Positions 34,180 to 38,652 of a DNA stretch of 64,000 nucleotides are shown here, piece by piece (the first letter of the stretch is position 1; each line of letters begins with the position of its first letter). Made by a program: the position numbers and the translations under genes. The notes below the pieces were generated by a model. The model did no database searches and was not told the origin of the DNA. It saw only the letters and a program-made list of their open reading frames with translations. The stretch covers positions 19,255 through 83,254 of the forward strand of contig JALOKU010000009.1 of assembly GCA_025456345.1 (NCBI GenBank), given 5' to 3'. The DNA comes from Vicinamibacterales bacterium (GTDB lineage Bacteria; Acidobacteriota; Vicinamibacteria; Vicinamibacterales; JAKQTR01).

Positions 34180-34452
34180 TCATGTACTGCGGCGCGCGGC
34201 GCCGCCCGACCCTAGCAGCGTGGCGATGCGCGCCCTGGCCCGCAGGCGCACGTCGGCGGGCAGCCTGGCGGTCCCCGCCTTGCGGCACGCATCGACCGTG
34301 TGTTTCAAGCTGTCGGCCATGGTTTGACAGCACGGGCACCGGCGCAAGTGCGCCGAGAGCGAGCGCCGCTCGGCCGGCGTCAGCTCGTCGTCGATGTACT
34401 TTGAGAGCTGTCCGAGCAGCGCACGGCAGCGATCCGATGCCGGCGACTTCAT
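34180..34452 (-). CDS. zf-HC2 (ZAS) anti-sigma factor
   Basis: 'LSKYIDDEL....HLRRCPCC' (HxxxCxxC); overlaps the sigma-factor stop. Confidence 0.85.
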   Translation of the reverse strand: MKSPASDRCRALLGQLSKYIDDELTPAERRSLSAHLRRCPCCQTMADSLKHTVDACRKAGTARLPADVRLRARARIATLLGSGGAARRST

Positions 34453-35084
34453 GGGGCCTCCAGATGCTGGCGCAGGCTCAGCCTCGCGCGGTGCAACCGG
34501 GTCTTCACGTTCGCCTCAGAGATGCCCACCACCGCGGCCACATCGCGCGTGGAGAGGCCCTCGACCTCCCTCAGGAACACGATCAGCCGGCTGTCGGGCG
34601 GCAGGGTCTGGAGCGCGCGGTGCAGCGACTGGCGGAGGCGCGAGTTTTCCATGACCTGGTCCGGCCGCCGCCCCTGGTCTTCGACGTCTATCCGCTGCAG
34701 GCTGCCGTCCGGGGCCATCGACACCTCGTCGAGCGAGTGCAGCCGCGCCGGCTCGTCCACGCGCCGCCTCCGGCTGATGAGGCAGGCGTTTTTCACCGTC
34801 CGGTACAGCCACGTCCTGAAGGCTGCCGGCTCCTTGATCTGGGCCGCGTGCCGGTAGGTCTTCAGCAGCGCCTCCTGCATCGCGTCGTCGGCGTCATCGG
34901 CGTGGCCGCAGACGAGCAGGCTGAACCGGTACGCGATCTCCTGGGTCTTCATCAGAAGCCGCTCCATGGCCGCCTGGTTCCCGCCCTGCGCCGCTCTCAG
35001 CAGCGTCGCGTAGTCGGTGCCTCGGGCGTCCTGGCCTTTGGTAGAGGGATTCGTTTCTGCGCGTTTGGTCACAGCAATCGTCAT
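34449..35084 (-). CDS. ECF RNA polymerase sigma-70 factor
   Basis: 'DADDAMQEALLK', 'FRTWLY', 'VFLREVEGLS..DVA..VG...VKTRLHRAR'. Start uncertain (ATG 35084 or GTG 35072). Confidence 0.88.
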   Translation of the reverse strand: MTIAVTKRAETNPSTKGQDARGTDYATLLRAAQGGNQAAMERLLMKTQEIAYRFSLLVCGHADDADDAMQEALLKTYRHAAQIKEPAAFRTWLYRTVKNACLISRRRRVDEPARLHSLDEVSMAPDGSLQRIDVEDQGRRPDQVMENSRLRQSLHRALQTLPPDSRLIVFLREVEGLSTRDVAAVVGISEANVKTRLHRARLSLRQHLEAP

Positions 35085-35219
35085 TGTAGCCTGTTCCGGC
35101 AGCCCTCCGCGCGCCGCAGCCCTCGTGTCACGTTCAGGTGAATTCCGCATCTCTGGAAGAGGCGAGGTCCGGGGCGCATCTTCGGGCCGGGATGGGCTAC
35201 GATAGGCGTTGGAGGCAGC

Positions 35220-35645
35220 ATGAAGGAATCGCGGTACGGCATGGGCGTCGACGTGGCGCTGCCCTACGAGCAGGCGGTGGAGCGCGCGACTGAGGAGTTG
35301 AAGAAAGAGGGATTCGGCATCCTGACCACCATCGACGTCCAGCAGACGCTCAAGCAGAAGCTCGACAAGGACTTCCGCAAGTACACGATTCTCGGGGCCT
35401 GCAATCCGCCGCTGGCCCACCGGGCGTTCGAGGCCGAACTCGAAATCGGCCTGCTGCTCCCCTGCAACGTCGTCGTCTACGAAACGGAACCCGGGCGGAG
35501 CGTGGTGTCGGCGATGGCCCCGATTGCCGCCATGGGCGTGGTCGGCGGCAACCCTGCCCTCAAGGACGTGGCGCGGGAAGCCGACGAGAAGCTGCGGCGA
35601 GCCCTGAAGGCCATCGAGGCCGTCGGCGCCGCGGAGAGGTCCTAG
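35220..35645 (+). CDS. DUF302 domain protein
   Basis: 'EGFGILTTIDVQQTLK', 'YTILGACNP', 'IGLLLPCNVVV'. Confidence 0.9.
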   Translation: MKESRYGMGVDVALPYEQAVERATEELKKEGFGILTTIDVQQTLKQKLDKDFRKYTILGACNPPLAHRAFEAELEIGLLLPCNVVVYETEPGRSVVSAMAPIAAMGVVGGNPALKDVAREADEKLRRALKAIEAVGAAERS

Positions 35646-35647
35646 CC

Positions 35648-35806
35648 GTGGACTACCTCATCCCCGTCGCGATCCTGGCGGTATGGGTCGTGCTGAATGC
35701 GTGGGTGCTGCCCAGGCTCGGCGTCCCGACTTGAATGAGCGGCGCGTGCGACGTCGAGTCTCGACGTCCAGACGAGAAGCGCGAACGGGAACGGGAGCAG
35801 GCGTGA
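35648..35806 (+). CDS. Candidate 52-aa single-TM selenoprotein (Sec at codon 29, UxxxxC)
   Basis: GGAGAGG ribosome-binding site and GTG start; MDYLIPVAILAVWVVLNAWVLPRLGVPT-[TGA 35732-35734]-MSGACDVESRRPDEKREREREQA; SECIS-like hairpin at 35750-35768. Confidence 0.65.
35750..35768 (+). promoter_or_regulatory. Putative bacterial SECIS element
   Basis: GACGTCG-AGTCT-CGACGTC hairpin starting 16 nt after the UGA; loop GU at +24/+25. Confidence 0.55.
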
Positions 35807-35828: not shown

Positions 35829-36395
35829 TCACGGCGACGCGCACCAGCCCGCGACGATGGCTGGATACGTCTCGAGCATCTTCAGGTAGCGCTCGCGATC
35901 GGGGTTCGTGGCGCGGCCGCCGGGGCTGTCGCTGAACTGCTCCACGATCGAGGCATGCTCCGCCTCGGTCAACACCTGGTCCGCGAGCTTGTAGAAGTAC
36001 TCGTCCTCGATCCGGATGTGCTCGCGGATGAGCTCCGTGTAGGCCCGCGCGTCGGCCGCCAGAGCCGAGGCGGCCGTCGGGTCCCGCTGCTGAAGCCGCT
36101 TCAGTTGCTTCTTCATCTTCGTCCCGTAGACCCGCCCGGCCTCGTGCTGCGAAACGAGCACGCTCACCACCGTCTGGTCGGGGCCGATGCCGTGCCTGGC
36201 TAGCAGCGGGAACAGCATCTCCTCTTCCCTGTCGTGGTGGCGGTCCGTGAAACTCTCGAAGAAGTCGAGCACGTCGACGAGCATCGGCATCGGGACCGGT
36301 TCGCCGCGTTCGAGCCGCCCGGCGACCGCGTCGAGGACGTCGAGCATGGAACTGAACCCGCGGTGCTCGTCCATCAGGACCGTGAGGAATCGCAT
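35829..36395 (-). CDS. Hemerythrin/HHE-domain protein
   Basis: 'LMDEH', 'HHDREEEMLFP', 'QHEAGR', 'EHIRIEDEYFY'. Confidence 0.88.
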   Translation of the reverse strand: MRFLTVLMDEHRGFSSMLDVLDAVAGRLERGEPVPMPMLVDVLDFFESFTDRHHDREEEMLFPLLARHGIGPDQTVVSVLVSQHEAGRVYGTKMKKQLKRLQQRDPTAASALAADARAYTELIREHIRIEDEYFYKLADQVLTEAEHASIVEQFSDSPGGRATNPDRERYLKMLETYPAIVAGWCASP

Positions 36396-36537
36396 GTCTG
36401 GGCTCTCCACTCCTTGCCGCGCGGCCACGCCGGACCGGCCCGTGGCACGCCGGGACGGCACCAGCCGCGAACGCGCTCATCCGAACCGGCTGGGGGCTGC
36501 GGAATCCCGGCAGGAGCAAGGGGACAGGCAAAAGGAT

Positions 36538-36553
36538 CGCAAGCTGCGTGCCG
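36538..36553 (-). promoter_or_regulatory. Putative sigma54 promoter for the hemerythrin gene
   Basis: Minus strand CGGCAC-GCAGC-TTGCG (GG-N10-GC) in the feoA-hemerythrin spacer. Confidence 0.5.
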
Positions 36554-36576
36554 GATCGGCCCGGATCAGGGCGTGT

Positions 36577-36816
36577 CTACTCGAGTTCGACGACGATGGC
36601 GCGGGCGACCGCTGGTTCGACGGCGAGTTCTGTGTGATCGCAGAGAAACACCACACCCGGGAACCGTTGGAGGACAGTCACGGTGGCACCGGGCGTCACG
36701 CCGAGGGCCATCAACCGATCGGCGCGGTCGGGATTCTCGCGCATGACCCGGAGCACCCGGCCGCTCGCCCCCGGGCGCATCGCCGACAGGCGCCGCGTCT
36801 TCTCAGAAGGTGACAT
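36577..36816 (-). CDS. feoA: Ferrous iron transport protein A
   Basis: 'LSAMRPG..GRV....RLMALGVTPGATVTV' SH3-like pattern; overlaps the end of feoB. Confidence 0.85.
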   Translation of the reverse strand: MSPSEKTRRLSAMRPGASGRVLRVMRENPDRADRLMALGVTPGATVTVLQRFPGVVFLCDHTELAVEPAVARAIVVELE

Positions 36817-38593
36817 GGAGTCCGCGCAGGATGGCGTTCAAGACGACGCCGGTGCCAAGCGCGATGACGGTGACCGCGCCCAGGATCCCCATGGCCGCTT
36901 TCAGGCCCTGCTCCTTGACCATCATGAGGAAGTTGGCCACGCACGGCACGAAGAGCGTCATCACGGTGAGCGCCACCACAGCCTGGACGCCGTCCAGCTC
37001 CCCCGCCTTCGACATCTGGAAGAGCCCGGCCGCGCCGTAGTCGCGACGCAGGAAGCCCATCACGAAGACGGTCGCGGCGTCTTTCGGCAGCCCGAGCAGC
37101 CCCGCCACGACGGGTTCCATCGCCTCGGTCAGCACCGTCAGCAGCCCAAGACGGCTGAGCGTGAACAGCAGCGCCGTGCCGAACAGGAACAGCGGGACGG
37201 CCTCGCCGAGGTACCAGCGCACGCGCAGCAGCGTCTTCCGGACGATGTTGCCGAGTTGCGGCAGCCGAAGCGGCGGAAGCTCCATGATGAATTCCGAGCG
37301 CTCGCCGGGGATGGTCCGCGCGGCGAGGAACCCCACCAGGAACATCTGGAGCATCACCACGCCAAACAACGTCACCAGGGCGAAGAACGACACGCCGCCG
37401 AGGATGCCGAGGATGGTGGCCAGCTGCGCCGAGCACGGGATGCCGAGCGCGAGCAGCAGGACCGCGATCAGCCGCTCCTTCGGCGTCCCGAGGATCCGCG
37501 TCGTCATCGTGGCCATCGTGTCGCAGCCAAGGCCGAGCACCATCGGCAGCACGGCCTTCCCGTTCAGCCCCATCGTGCGGAAGATCCGGTCGCTGAAGAT
37601 AGCCAGCCTGGGGATGTAGCCCGAATCCTCGAGGAACCCGAACACCAGGAAGAACGTGGCGACCACCGGCAGCACGATGGCGATGGCGTACGTGAGCCCC
37701 ATCGTGATGAGACCGTACTCGCCGACGAGAAAGTCCCTGGCGACCGCCCACGGCACGGCCCGGTTCACCAGGGCGATGGCGCCCGGGTTGATGAACTGCT
37801 CGAACAGGCCGCCCTCGATGAGGCCTACCAGCGTCTGGGCGCCGAACACCCCGACGGCGAGGTACATGCCGTAGAGCACGATGGCGAGAATCGGCAGGCC
37901 CGTCAGCGGCTCGCGGACGAGCCGTCCGAGACGCTCCTGGATGCGCGCGGCCGATCGCCGGCGATAGCAGCGATACTGGACCGCCAGATCGTGTGCGAGG
38001 TGCGCGTGGTCGCCGCGGTGCGGCGCATCAAACGCCGGCACCGCCGCGCGCCCGATCGCGTCGCGCAGTCCGGCAATGCCGCGCCCCTCGGTGGCCACCG
38101 TCTCGACCACCGGGATGCCCAGGCGCGCCGCCAGCCCCGCGGCGTCGATGACGATGCCGTGTACCCGGGCTTCGTCGATCATGTTCAGGACGAGCACCAT
38201 GGGCCGGCCGATGGCCGCCAGTTGCGAGGTGAGCATCAGGGCGCGCCGGAGGTTCCGGGCGTCCGAGACCTGGATGACGACGTCGGTCTGCCCGGCGTTG
38301 AGGATACGCCGCGCGACGAGTTCGTCCTCGGTGAGAGCCCCTTCGAGCGCCGTGACGCCGGGCGTGTCGACCAGTTCGCAGACTTCCCCGCCCAGCACGA
38401 CGCGCCCGGTTGTGAGCGCCACCGTCGTGCCGGGGTAGTTCGAGACGACGGCATACTGCCCGGTCAGACGGCCGAACAGGACGCTCTTGCCGACGTTGGC
38501 GTTGCCGACGAGCGCGATGCGGCGTGGGCGGGCCCGCAGCGTCAGAAGAGGGTCGGCTGCCGGTTCGCGCACCGCAGCCTGGGCGCAGGACAT
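36803..38593 (-). CDS. feoB: Ferrous iron transport protein B
   Basis: G1 GNANVGKS, NYPGTTV, DTPG, G4 NMID; 'LEDSGYIPRLA', 'GLGC', 'IPCSAQ', 'FVPCVA'. Confidence 0.92.
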   Translation of the reverse strand: MSCAQAAVREPAADPLLTLRARPRRIALVGNANVGKSVLFGRLTGQYAVVSNYPGTTVALTTGRVVLGGEVCELVDTPGVTALEGALTEDELVARRILNAGQTDVVIQVSDARNLRRALMLTSQLAAIGRPMVLVLNMIDEARVHGIVIDAAGLAARLGIPVVETVATEGRGIAGLRDAIGRAAVPAFDAPHRGDHAHLAHDLAVQYRCYRRRSAARIQERLGRLVREPLTGLPILAIVLYGMYLAVGVFGAQTLVGLIEGGLFEQFINPGAIALVNRAVPWAVARDFLVGEYGLITMGLTYAIAIVLPVVATFFLVFGFLEDSGYIPRLAIFSDRIFRTMGLNGKAVLPMVLGLGCDTMATMTTRILGTPKERLIAVLLLALGIPCSAQLATILGILGGVSFFALVTLFGVVMLQMFLVGFLAARTIPGERSEFIMELPPLRLPQLGNIVRKTLLRVRWYLGEAVPLFLFGTALLFTLSRLGLLTVLTEAMEPVVAGLLGLPKDAATVFVMGFLRRDYGAAGLFQMSKAGELDGVQAVVALTVMTLFVPCVANFLMMVKEQGLKAAMGILGAVTVIALGTGVVLNAILRGLHVTF

Positions 38594-38652
38594 CCGGTGC
38601 CTCTTACGCCGGCCCGCGAGTGGCGGTGCCGGCCGGGGCAATCGCCCCTCTA

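Follow-up and report, generated by a model that had tools for sequence, protein, structure and literature searches.

Canonical bacterial selenoprotein genes such as fdhF carry an in-frame UGA that is decoded as selenocysteine (Sec), have homologues with cysteine (Cys) at the same place and depend on selA, selB, selC and selD. In the part of a May 2026 review of prokaryotic selenoproteins that was accessible to us, the bacterial selenocysteine insertion sequence (SECIS) is described as a stem-loop with a small apical loop and a G in its first or second place, often followed by G/U, located 16-37 nucleotides (nt) from the UGA, and Table 1 of the same review lists 119 families, each with a domain identifier (PMC13188914). 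Here we analyse a 64,000-nt stretch of DNA (the window) from contig JALOKU010000009.1 of a Vicinamibacterales bacterium, in which positions 35648-35806 of the forward strand are, judging from comparison with related genomes, very probably a real gene, encoding a selenoprotein of 52 residues that spans the membrane once (the selenopeptide) and belongs to a large unnamed family. With fdhF and with the selD gene of its own genome, the selenopeptide gene shares the in-frame UGA, the Cys homologues and a presumed dependence on selA, selB, selC and selD, and it also shares a stem-loop in the 16-37 nt range whose small apical loop opens with a G, following the model given in that review (PMC13188914). 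Compared with the families in the 2026 table, the selenopeptide is far smaller, spans the membrane once and carries a U-x4-C motif instead of the usual UxxC/CxxU. It also differs from the canonical genes in its annotation, because the stub of 28 amino acids (aa) ahead of the UGA lies under the length limit of most gene callers and the gene usually vanishes instead of being merely shortened.

Outside the bacteria, the nearest architectural likeness is presumably that of the selenoproteins K and S (SELENOK and SELENOS), which we take to resemble the selenopeptide in having one transmembrane helix on the N-terminal side and a disordered, charged tail that carries the Sec, and for which no homology is claimed. 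In SELENOS the Sec forms a selenenylsulfide with a nearby Cys. Both proteins differ from the selenopeptide in that their Sec lies near the C-terminal end, their SECIS stands in the 3′ untranslated region (UTR) and they reside in the endoplasmic reticulum. Among the known families, LULAxC TsoA (NF045695), MerT-like (PF02411), YeeE/YedE (PF04143), SO_0444 (NF033936) and dual-CXXC (NF041197) are comparable as small or membrane proteins with a Sec near a Cys and with sulfur or metal themes; these five are polytopic or soluble and carry other motifs, and the selenopeptide and ten Cys-form relatives match no Pfam or NCBIfam model at E <= 1 beyond noise.

The gene and the elements within and directly before it are the following.

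35648-35806 (+): selenopeptide gene, with a GTG start, 52 sense codons, predicted Sec at codon 29 and a terminal TGA
35633-35639 (+): Shine-Dalgarno-like GGAGAGG, within the 3′ end of the DUF302 gene and 8 nt 5′ of the GTG
35643-35645 (+): stop codon TAG of the DUF302 gene; the GTG at 35648-35650 starts 2 nt later
35657-35716 (+): predicted transmembrane helix, residues 4-23, with conserved W13, N/Q17, W19 and L21-P22
35732-35734 (+): in-frame TGA, the predicted Sec codon (residue 29); a conserved TGA, with Cys at the same column in homologues
35747-35749 (+): TGC codon of Cys34, the U-x4-C partner of the Sec, five residues past the TGA
35750-35768 (+): predicted SECIS hairpin, with a stem of 7-8 base pairs (bp) that lies 15 nt past the TGA and an apical loop A-GUC-U

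What a preliminary description of this locus had reported was confirmed in the sequence, namely the ribosome-binding site GGAGAGG, the GTG 2 nt past the DUF302 stop, the in-frame TGA, the 23 further codons and the Cys at +5, together with the hairpin GACGTCG-AGTCT-CGACGTC that starts at +16, has its GU at +24/+25 and occupies 35750-35768. Past codon 29 another 23 codons follow without a stop, up to the TGA at 35804-35806. If the TGA is read as U, the read-through product is M/V-DYLIPVAILAVWVVLNAWVLPRLGVPT-U-MSGAC-DVESRRPDEKREREREQA, or, written from its first residue, VDYLIPVAILAVWVVLNAWVLPRLGVPT-U-MSGAC-DVESRRPDEKREREREQA. This layout is based on the same arrangement being found at all 27 orthologous loci and on a stop codon position that is identical in the four closest relatives; purine runs comparable to the GGAGAGG also stand 5′ of the start codon in relatives. 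The list of open reading frames (ORFs) of the window holds only the 28-aa stub at 35648-35734. The same loss is seen in databases, where 58 of the 120 listed relatives are stubs of 28-29 aa by manual count; gene callers thus miss or shorten the gene, in line with the earlier remark that the ORF track had missed it.

For the conservation of the TGA, a stop-tolerant six-frame search of 61 related genomes, in which matches were accepted at E <= 2.2e-5, returned 28 matches in 27 genomes, while the next-best match had E = 0.0065. Each of the 28 has exactly one in-frame TGA and most of the alignments extend beyond it. At the 27 loci that were fetched, the TGA stands in the identical column without exception, a Cys follows five residues past it at 25, the distance from the start codon to the TGA is 28 codons at 23, and a hairpin is seen by eye 15 nt past the TGA at 26. 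We also observed a genome of the same genus with two copies of the selenopeptide gene, both with TGA (G002:C8:350945-351100 and G002:C3:2301-2450). With a profile built from the 27 close loci (A1), the gene was detected in 115 genomes of a 401-genome sample of the phylum, and the TGA is carried by 111 of the 116 match rows; of the five rows that lack it, one (G404) is a full Cys form and the other four are short matches inside long ORFs. Furthermore, a scan of one genome per species gave at least 512 places confirmed by tblastn, with a TGA in all of the best 80, whose titles name Acidobacteriota (Vicinamibacterales being the closest), Planctomycetota, Verrucomicrobiia, Armatimonadota and several delta-proteobacterial lineages, as well as Chloroflexota, Zixiibacteriota, a Kuenenia metagenome-assembled genome (MAG) and others. 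Unlike the lone sequence, these comparative data indicate that the conserved TGA frame is not due to chance.

The sequence past the TGA is conserved at the level of the protein. In codon tallies of 124 distinct Sec-form sequences, Met is found at +1 in 97 and Ser at +2 in 91, the latter encoded by AGC (45), AGT (5), TCC (21), TCG (13) and TCT (7), which are both serine codon families; Cys at +5 is present in 118 (TGC 80, TGT 38). The use of both unconnected Ser codon families and of both Cys codons indicates that selection acts on the protein, not on the RNA. In the codons ahead of the TGA, variation falls mostly on third positions, with entropies of 0.83, 0.53 and 1.44 at positions 1, 2 and 3.

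Searching 1.84 billion representative proteins with the profile yielded 1276 matches at E <= 0.001. Among the best 150 of these 1276, the Sec column is occupied by Cys in 110, and the second Cys is also present in 103 of those 110; the other letters at the column are W (19), G (4), R (3), S (2) and L (1), and of the remaining entries 8 end at the Thr that precedes the TGA and 3 fall outside the search pattern. A scan of loci seeded with Cys forms, for which a 13-row alignment served as the seed because a 43-row alignment was too loose, found TGC or TGT at 44 loci, TGA at 35 and TAT at one. Homologues with TGA or Cys at position 29 and conservation beyond it, which the preliminary description had named as the support to look for, were accordingly found in the 27 of 27 loci, in the Cys forms and in the tallies of the 124 sequences. 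Two observations on Cys-type relatives stand apart. In a Planctomycetaceae MAG (L230), the Sec/Cys column is occupied by Tyr, encoded by TAT, and the second Cys is retained. In a metagenomic protein of 208 aa (P0093), a Cys-form peptide runs stop-free into a TrxA-type thioredoxin domain (TIGR01068, 105.7 bits), which may reflect either a genuine fusion or two neighbouring genes that were merged.

These data bear on the possibility that the gene simply stops at the TGA, in which case the product would be a 28-residue hydrophobic micropeptide and the hairpin would serve mRNA stability, attenuation or termination. The many 28-29-residue stubs reported by gene callers agree with such a product, as does the unremarkable fold of the single sequence. 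Sec insertion in bacteria is generally inefficient, so that the short product is probably made as well. Against a gene that ends at the TGA stand the protein-level conservation past it, with both Ser codon families and the Cys at +5 in 118 of 124, and the Cys forms, which extend through the same motif.

The hairpin itself is formed by the arms GACGTCG (35750-35756) and CGACGTC (35762-35768) around AGTCT (35757-35761). Its stem begins at the 16th base past the TGA, and the G and U of the loop are the 24th and 25th bases, or +27 and +28 when counted from the U of the UGA. ViennaRNA draws the hairpin with 8 bp and the loop GUC. The loop begins 22-23 nt past the UGA with its G in first or second place, which falls within the bacterial model as given in the accessible part of the review (PMC13188914).

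From the published bacterial SECIS model we took an alignment-free rule, under which the stem must have 6 bp or more and the loop 3-7 nt, with the loop beginning 16-37 nt past the UGA and carrying a G in place 1 or 2. This rule is satisfied by 114 of the 124 Sec forms, compared with 1012 of 6847 (14.8%) control sites in this genome, where a TGA closes an ORF of 200 codons or more, and with 249 of 2480 shuffles (10%). Within the family it is satisfied by 27 of 34 Sec forms and by 4 of 44 Cys forms, indicating that the hairpin is tied to the TGA rather than to the protein family. Furthermore, the helix covaries. The pair counts were made on 102 distinct sequences aligned without gaps, after exclusion of 22 of the 124 with a shifted or absent-looking hairpin, a choice that favours the named helix. 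Of the cells of the 8-bp helix, 81.7% are paired, as opposed to 63.2% in shuffles, and 0 of 500 shuffles reach the observed value (n = 102); cells with double changes number 131 as opposed to 41 in shuffles (again 0 of 500), with double changes at all 8 pairs. When the partner strand was slid by 1-3 columns, pairing was 22-46%. The hairpin that had been proposed as a SECIS on the basis of a single sequence is therefore upheld by its fit to the bacterial model (114 of 124) and by its covariation (131 versus 41 double-change cells). The Sec forms read D-V-E-S-R-R, because the SECIS hairpin lies inside the coding sequence, and this stretch is absent from the Cys forms.

The hairpin data also speak to the termination at codon 28 considered above, as the hairpin goes with TGA and not with TGC or TGT (27 of 34 versus 4 of 44) and is not followed on its 3′ side by a T-run. 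In addition, the TGA forms occur in selA-positive genomes (107 of 110). We consider a gene that ends at the TGA very improbable.

The selenocysteine machinery of the organism was searched in its 5.07-Mb assembly, which consists of 253 contigs and is 90.8% complete. The genes selB (335.6 bits), selA (527.5 bits) and selD (347.5 bits) are each above the curated cut-off, and SelD is itself a selenoprotein, with an in-frame TGA in C-S-G-U-A-S-K (G000:C60:11345-12277 (-), locus L008). Of the four genes selA, selB, selC and selD that the preliminary description had proposed to check, three are thus present over their cut-offs, while selC was not found in the assembly and is present in 5 of 5 relatives. 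Across the phylum sample, selA is found in 107 of the 110 genomes with a TGA-bearing match compared with 301 of 401 genomes overall, by a manual cross-tabulation in which the selA tally includes G106, G203 and G083, none of which carries the peptide. The one genome of this sample with a full Cys form (G404) has neither selA nor selB above the cut-off.

A further explanation would be that the TGA is read through without selenocysteine, by a near-cognate tRNA for Trp or Cys or under a variant genetic code. The W (19) and G (4) found at the column among the best 150 proteins are what genetic codes 4 and 25 would give. These letters are most simply explained as the TGA rendered under those codes by gene callers on contigs of ordinary bacteria, and TGA is a stop codon genome-wide, with 6847 long ORFs that end in it. 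The presence of selA and selB, together with a SelD that has U at its canonical site, also speaks against such a reading, as does the hairpin of SECIS type at a fixed distance, which corresponds to a need of SelB, whereas plain read-through would exert no selection for a hairpin. This explanation appears even less probable than an end at codon 28.

Several observations weigh against the locus being a selenoprotein gene, to which the selection of sequences for the pair counts has to be added. Seen in a single sequence, an open frame of 23 codons is by itself unremarkable in G+C-rich DNA, and a 76-nt segment folds no better than its shuffles (z = -0.61, with 50 of 200 folding as well). The RNAalifold consensus (alignment A3) consists of 4 pairs only, at -0.82 kcal/mol, because subfamilies hold the hairpin in shifted registers. 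The SECIS rule is failed by 10 of 124 and by 7 of 34 Sec forms, and 6 of 124 Sec forms have no Cys at +5. The genomes are related and not independent, so that the shuffle counts and tallies overstate the case. Three genomes with a TGA match have no selA match, namely G219 (a weak match only), G276 (95% complete, with selB at 363 bits) and G374 (64% complete).

The tRNA for selenocysteine (tRNA-Sec), the product of selC, also counts among these points, since it was not found by Rfam, ARAGORN or blastn in the 90.8%-complete assembly, nor in the window. The best Rfam score was 42.9 bits, below the gathering score of 47, and those matches are tRNA-Ser and tRNA-Leu; ARAGORN found 44 tRNAs in the assembly, none of them tRNA-Sec; and blastn of the tRNA-Sec genes of the same genus with their flanks gave no match to the assembly. 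All five relatives examined, three of them from the same genus, do carry a tRNA-Sec, with anticodon tca. As the selC flanks of the same genus are also unmatched and the assembly is 90.8% complete in 253 contigs, the non-detection is not proof of absence, and an assembly gap is the likeliest explanation.

Lastly, contigs from wetland RNA libraries match the locus without a difference at 35180-35430 (X1), 35391-35538 (X3) and 35568-35776 (X2, 209 nt), of which X2 covers the end of DUF302, the start of the peptide, the TGA and the hairpin. They are a weak hint of expression, as they may stem from DNA and show no single transcript, which adds to the points on the negative side. In a separate observation, record 4 of X3 matches 35701-35737 and then continues into the post-TGA sequence of a relative, with the Cys codon and a hairpin with a GUC loop, indicating that related selenopeptide genes are present in the same kind of sample.

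Collectively, the conserved TGA, the Cys forms, the SECIS and the sel genes support the interpretation of the locus as a tiny single-pass membrane selenoprotein that had been put forward in the preliminary description. Translation would start at the GTG 2 nt past the DUF302 stop, and the first 23 residues or so would form one transmembrane helix. The hairpin at 35750-35768 would recruit SelB with Sec-tRNA(Sec) to codon 29, where the UGA would be decoded as selenocysteine, and translation would then pass Cys34 and a charged, disordered tail to end at the TGA at 35804. The recoding mechanism itself is ordinary and canonical.

The membrane anchor that had been suspected from a 28-aa hydrophobic segment is reproduced by both predictions, with a mean Kyte-Doolittle value over 19 residues of 2.23 at residues 3-21 and an AlphaFold2 helix at residues 4-23. 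In the AlphaFold2 model (A1), this helix has a predicted local distance difference test (pLDDT) score of about 90 and is followed by a loop at residues 24-35 that holds U29 and C34 and by a low-confidence tail, with a mean pLDDT of 74.8; as a helix with a flexible tail, the model lacks the size that a fold search needs. The residues W13, W19, L21, P22, G25, V26, T28, U29 and R40 do not vary among the 27 close relatives. For the family as a whole, which comprises Sec and Cys forms from many phyla, the core can be written W-x5-W-[VIL]-L-P-x-[LFM]-G-[VI]-x-T-[U/C]-x4-C, and the length is 45-90 residues. Lys and Arg average 1.12 in the 15 residues after L-P compared with 0.36 before the helix, and 92 of 177 proteins have a Lys or Arg within the last six helix residues. 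By the positive-inside rule alone, these values favour a cytoplasmic tail. The U-x4-C motif may have a redox or metal-binding role.

Next we compared the family with what has been catalogued. The peptide and ten Cys forms have no Pfam or NCBIfam match at E <= 1 except noise. Among 5.8 billion proteins, a profile detected 515 relatives, for which the only names given are 'hypothetical protein' and 'Uncharacterized protein'. Table 1 of the 2026 review contains no family of peptides of about 50 residues and no U-x4-C motif (PMC13188914); table families that have only cd or PTHR identifiers were compared by description, and all of them are larger domains. No such family is mentioned in the accessible parts of the Haft preprint (10.1101/2022.07.06.499078) and of the deep-Sep paper (PMC12013277), whose supplements may list more candidates. 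Literature searches with the motif strings CMSGAC, UMSGAC, GVPTC, GVPTU, TCMSG and TUMSG returned nothing relevant, and a search for literature linking DUF302 with a selenoprotein returned one irrelevant paper. In a protein atlas, a natural Cys form led to an unnamed cluster of 56 aa at 0.87, which is a lead only. A word-index protein search with the single peptide found no relatives, a result that reflects a limit of the index, since the profile searches gave 1276 and 515. The family is thus widespread, unnamed and apparently uncatalogued in Pfam, NCBIfam and the 2026 inventory.

Two known small membrane proteins were considered as identities and rejected. YgaP-like_TM (PF11127, DUF2892) is likewise a small membrane protein with a conserved Cys and a sulfur-transfer theme, and it occurs in common neighbourhoods (3 of 103 and 3 of 75 flanking ORFs); the selenopeptide has no Pfam match to it, has one helix as opposed to two and carries a different motif. 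PF12669, which we take to be the FeoB-associated Cys-rich membrane protein, also has a helix at its N-terminus and then a short tail with Cys, and the distance between feoAB and the selenopeptide gene is 1 kb. Here, too, there is no Pfam match at E <= 1, and the selenopeptide gene is convergent with feoAB, has the hemerythrin gene in between and stands outside the feo operon.

The surroundings of the gene in the window are the following.

34183-34452 (-): zf-HC2 anti-sigma factor by Pfam, 90 aa, with H-x3-C-x2-C; kept in 12 of 27 loci
34452-35084 (-): extracytoplasmic function (ECF) sigma factor by Pfam, divergent from the DUF302-selenopeptide pair
35126-35151 (+): candidate ECF-type promoter TGTCAC-N15-GCATC (GAATC in most relatives)
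35220-35645 (+): DUF302 gene (Pfam, 1.1e-26), which closely abuts the selenopeptide gene on its 5′ side
35829-36461 (-): hemerythrin-domain gene (Pfam, 4.3e-19), convergent, with a stop-to-stop distance of 22 nt

At 24 of the 27 close loci DUF302 stands directly upstream, and in 17 of 22 loci its stop codon is separated from the start of the selenopeptide gene by a gap of -1 to +6 nt. The function of DUF302 is not known, and its occurrence within sox clusters has been described (PMC5037610). In an alignment of 22 orthologues (A6), two of its residues, Cys61 (L-G-A-C-N-P) and Cys82 (L-P-C-N), are invariant, and these may be partners for Se-S exchange. At five loci (L026, L028, L032, L033 and L039), the gene 5′ of DUF302 was observed to end in F-T-N-W-C-P-M-M, which by eye resembles a motif of the YgaP-like/DUF2892 proteins. 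The close abutment to DUF302 in this lineage would also suit a stretch that is no gene of its own but belongs to the DUF302 gene as a conserved regulatory element or 3′ UTR. Such an element is contradicted by the occurrence of the same ORF without DUF302 in most other lineages (DUF302 being 30 of 110 upstream ORFs), by variation that is lowest at codon positions 1 and 2 (entropies 0.83, 0.53 and 1.44) and by the fixed start codon and distance to the TGA (28 codons at 23 of 27 loci), and we give this explanation hardly any credence.

The upstream motif TGTCAC-N15-G(A/C)ATC is common to 10 of 17 aligned upstream regions, which are those with the divergent sigma/anti-sigma pair, and a search by eye for a SigR-type promoter 5′ of DUF302 found none. 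In this lineage, the DUF302-selenopeptide pair is probably controlled by a redox-sensing system of an ECF sigma factor and a zf-HC2 anti-sigma factor. On the other side of the selenopeptide gene, a convergent block of hemerythrin, feoA and feoB extends over 35829-38641 (-); of the 27 loci, 19 retain hemerythrin and 15 retain feoA.

Beyond the close relatives, the neighbours of the family are varied. Among 110 crude upstream ORFs of Sec-form loci we found DUF302 (30), thioredoxin-like (5-6), AhpC/TSA (5) and Usp (5), and the downstream ORFs are mixed. The 75 ORFs that flank 44 Cys-form loci include thioredoxin (15), zf-HC2 (11), rhodanese (10), metallo-beta-lactamase (7), TauE (6), DsbD_TM (6), YgaP-like TM (3) and DUF302 (2). 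Examples of operons are a metallo-beta-lactamase (MBL)-rhodanese fusion followed by the peptide and TauE/SafE, a thioredoxin followed by the peptide and a DsbD_TM-thioredoxin fusion, and Usp followed by the peptide and DUF302. In Planctomycetaceae (L171, L184, L187, L203, L212 and similar loci), the Cys-form gene was observed between an MBL-rhodanese fusion of 477 aa and TauE/SafE, as established by a gene-by-gene scan for L171 and deduced from equal ORF sizes and Pfam tallies for the others. By analogy, this arrangement resembles sulfide or persulfide detoxification operons.

On the basis of these neighbourhoods we suggest, tentatively and with somewhat less than even confidence, that the selenopeptide offers a juxtamembrane selenol/thiol pair for thiol-disulfide or sulfane-sulfur transfer between soluble and membrane proteins. 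The U-x4-C would lie a few residues from the membrane, most likely on its cytoplasmic side, and would cycle between selenol/thiol and selenenylsulfide or carry sulfane sulfur. The soluble partner would here be DUF302, and elsewhere the rhodanese-metallo-beta-lactamase fusion or a thioredoxin; membrane partners elsewhere would be TauE/SafE or a DsbD/CcdA-thioredoxin fusion. Two points count against such a role, namely a topology taken from the positive-inside rule only and the variation of the neighbours by lineage, with DUF302 in only 30 of 110 crude upstream ORFs.

The main alternative to a sulfur or thiol role is metal binding, under which the protein would be a real selenoprotein and its U-x4-C a site for a metal or metalloid (Hg, Cu, As, Se) in a membrane-anchored chaperone or sensor. 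Several known membrane selenoproteins are related to metals, among them MerT-like, SO_0444 Cu/Zn efflux and a cation ATPase (PMC13188914, Table 1), P-type ATPases, RND/HlyD efflux parts and ArsR occur near some loci, and FeoAB and hemerythrin genes are close by in the lineage. The sulfur and thiol neighbours are nonetheless the commonest (thioredoxin 15, rhodanese 10, MBL 7, TauE 6 and DsbD_TM 6 of 75), whereas metal-related neighbours occur only 2-3 times each, and FeoAB is convergent with another gene in between. We regard a metal site as unlikely.

As a broader extension of the sulfur and thiol role, the U/C-x4-C peptides might form a widespread class, not recognised until now, of carriers that are anchored in the membrane and bear sulfane sulfur or thiol/selenol groups, a bacterial counterpart in architecture of selenoproteins K and S. 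Such carriers would pass sulfur or reducing equivalents between soluble enzymes (DUF302, rhodanese-persulfide dioxygenase fusions, thioredoxin) and the membrane proteins TauE/SafE and CcdA/DsbD. We put this forward as a possible but doubtful proposal.

Taken together, these results, if true, add a selenoprotein family that is absent from the May 2026 inventory of 119 (PMC13188914). The family is found in about a quarter of the 401-genome sample of the phylum, and also in Planctomycetota, Verrucomicrobiia, Armatimonadota, delta-proteobacterial lineages, Chloroflexota and others. It reveals a blind spot, as the part before the UGA falls below the minimum length of gene callers and the whole gene is lost, so that homology-based selenoprotein screens which start from annotated proteins may never meet such genes. 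Further work is warranted by the family as such, by its size and motif and by the way in which annotation systematically loses it, and cultured carriers are available, namely Tundrisphaera lichenicola P12 (L222) and Aquisphaera insulae JC669 (L126) for the Sec form and Gimesia panareensis for the Cys form. With its unusual size, membrane anchor and U-x4-C motif, the selenopeptide may be a minimal model of selenol chemistry at the membrane. Its neighbourhoods link DUF302, the rhodanese-dioxygenase/TauE sulfide-detoxification operons and the CcdA/thioredoxin systems to one small partner, which makes the function testable, and if the peptides are carriers, this would be the first concrete partner for DUF302.

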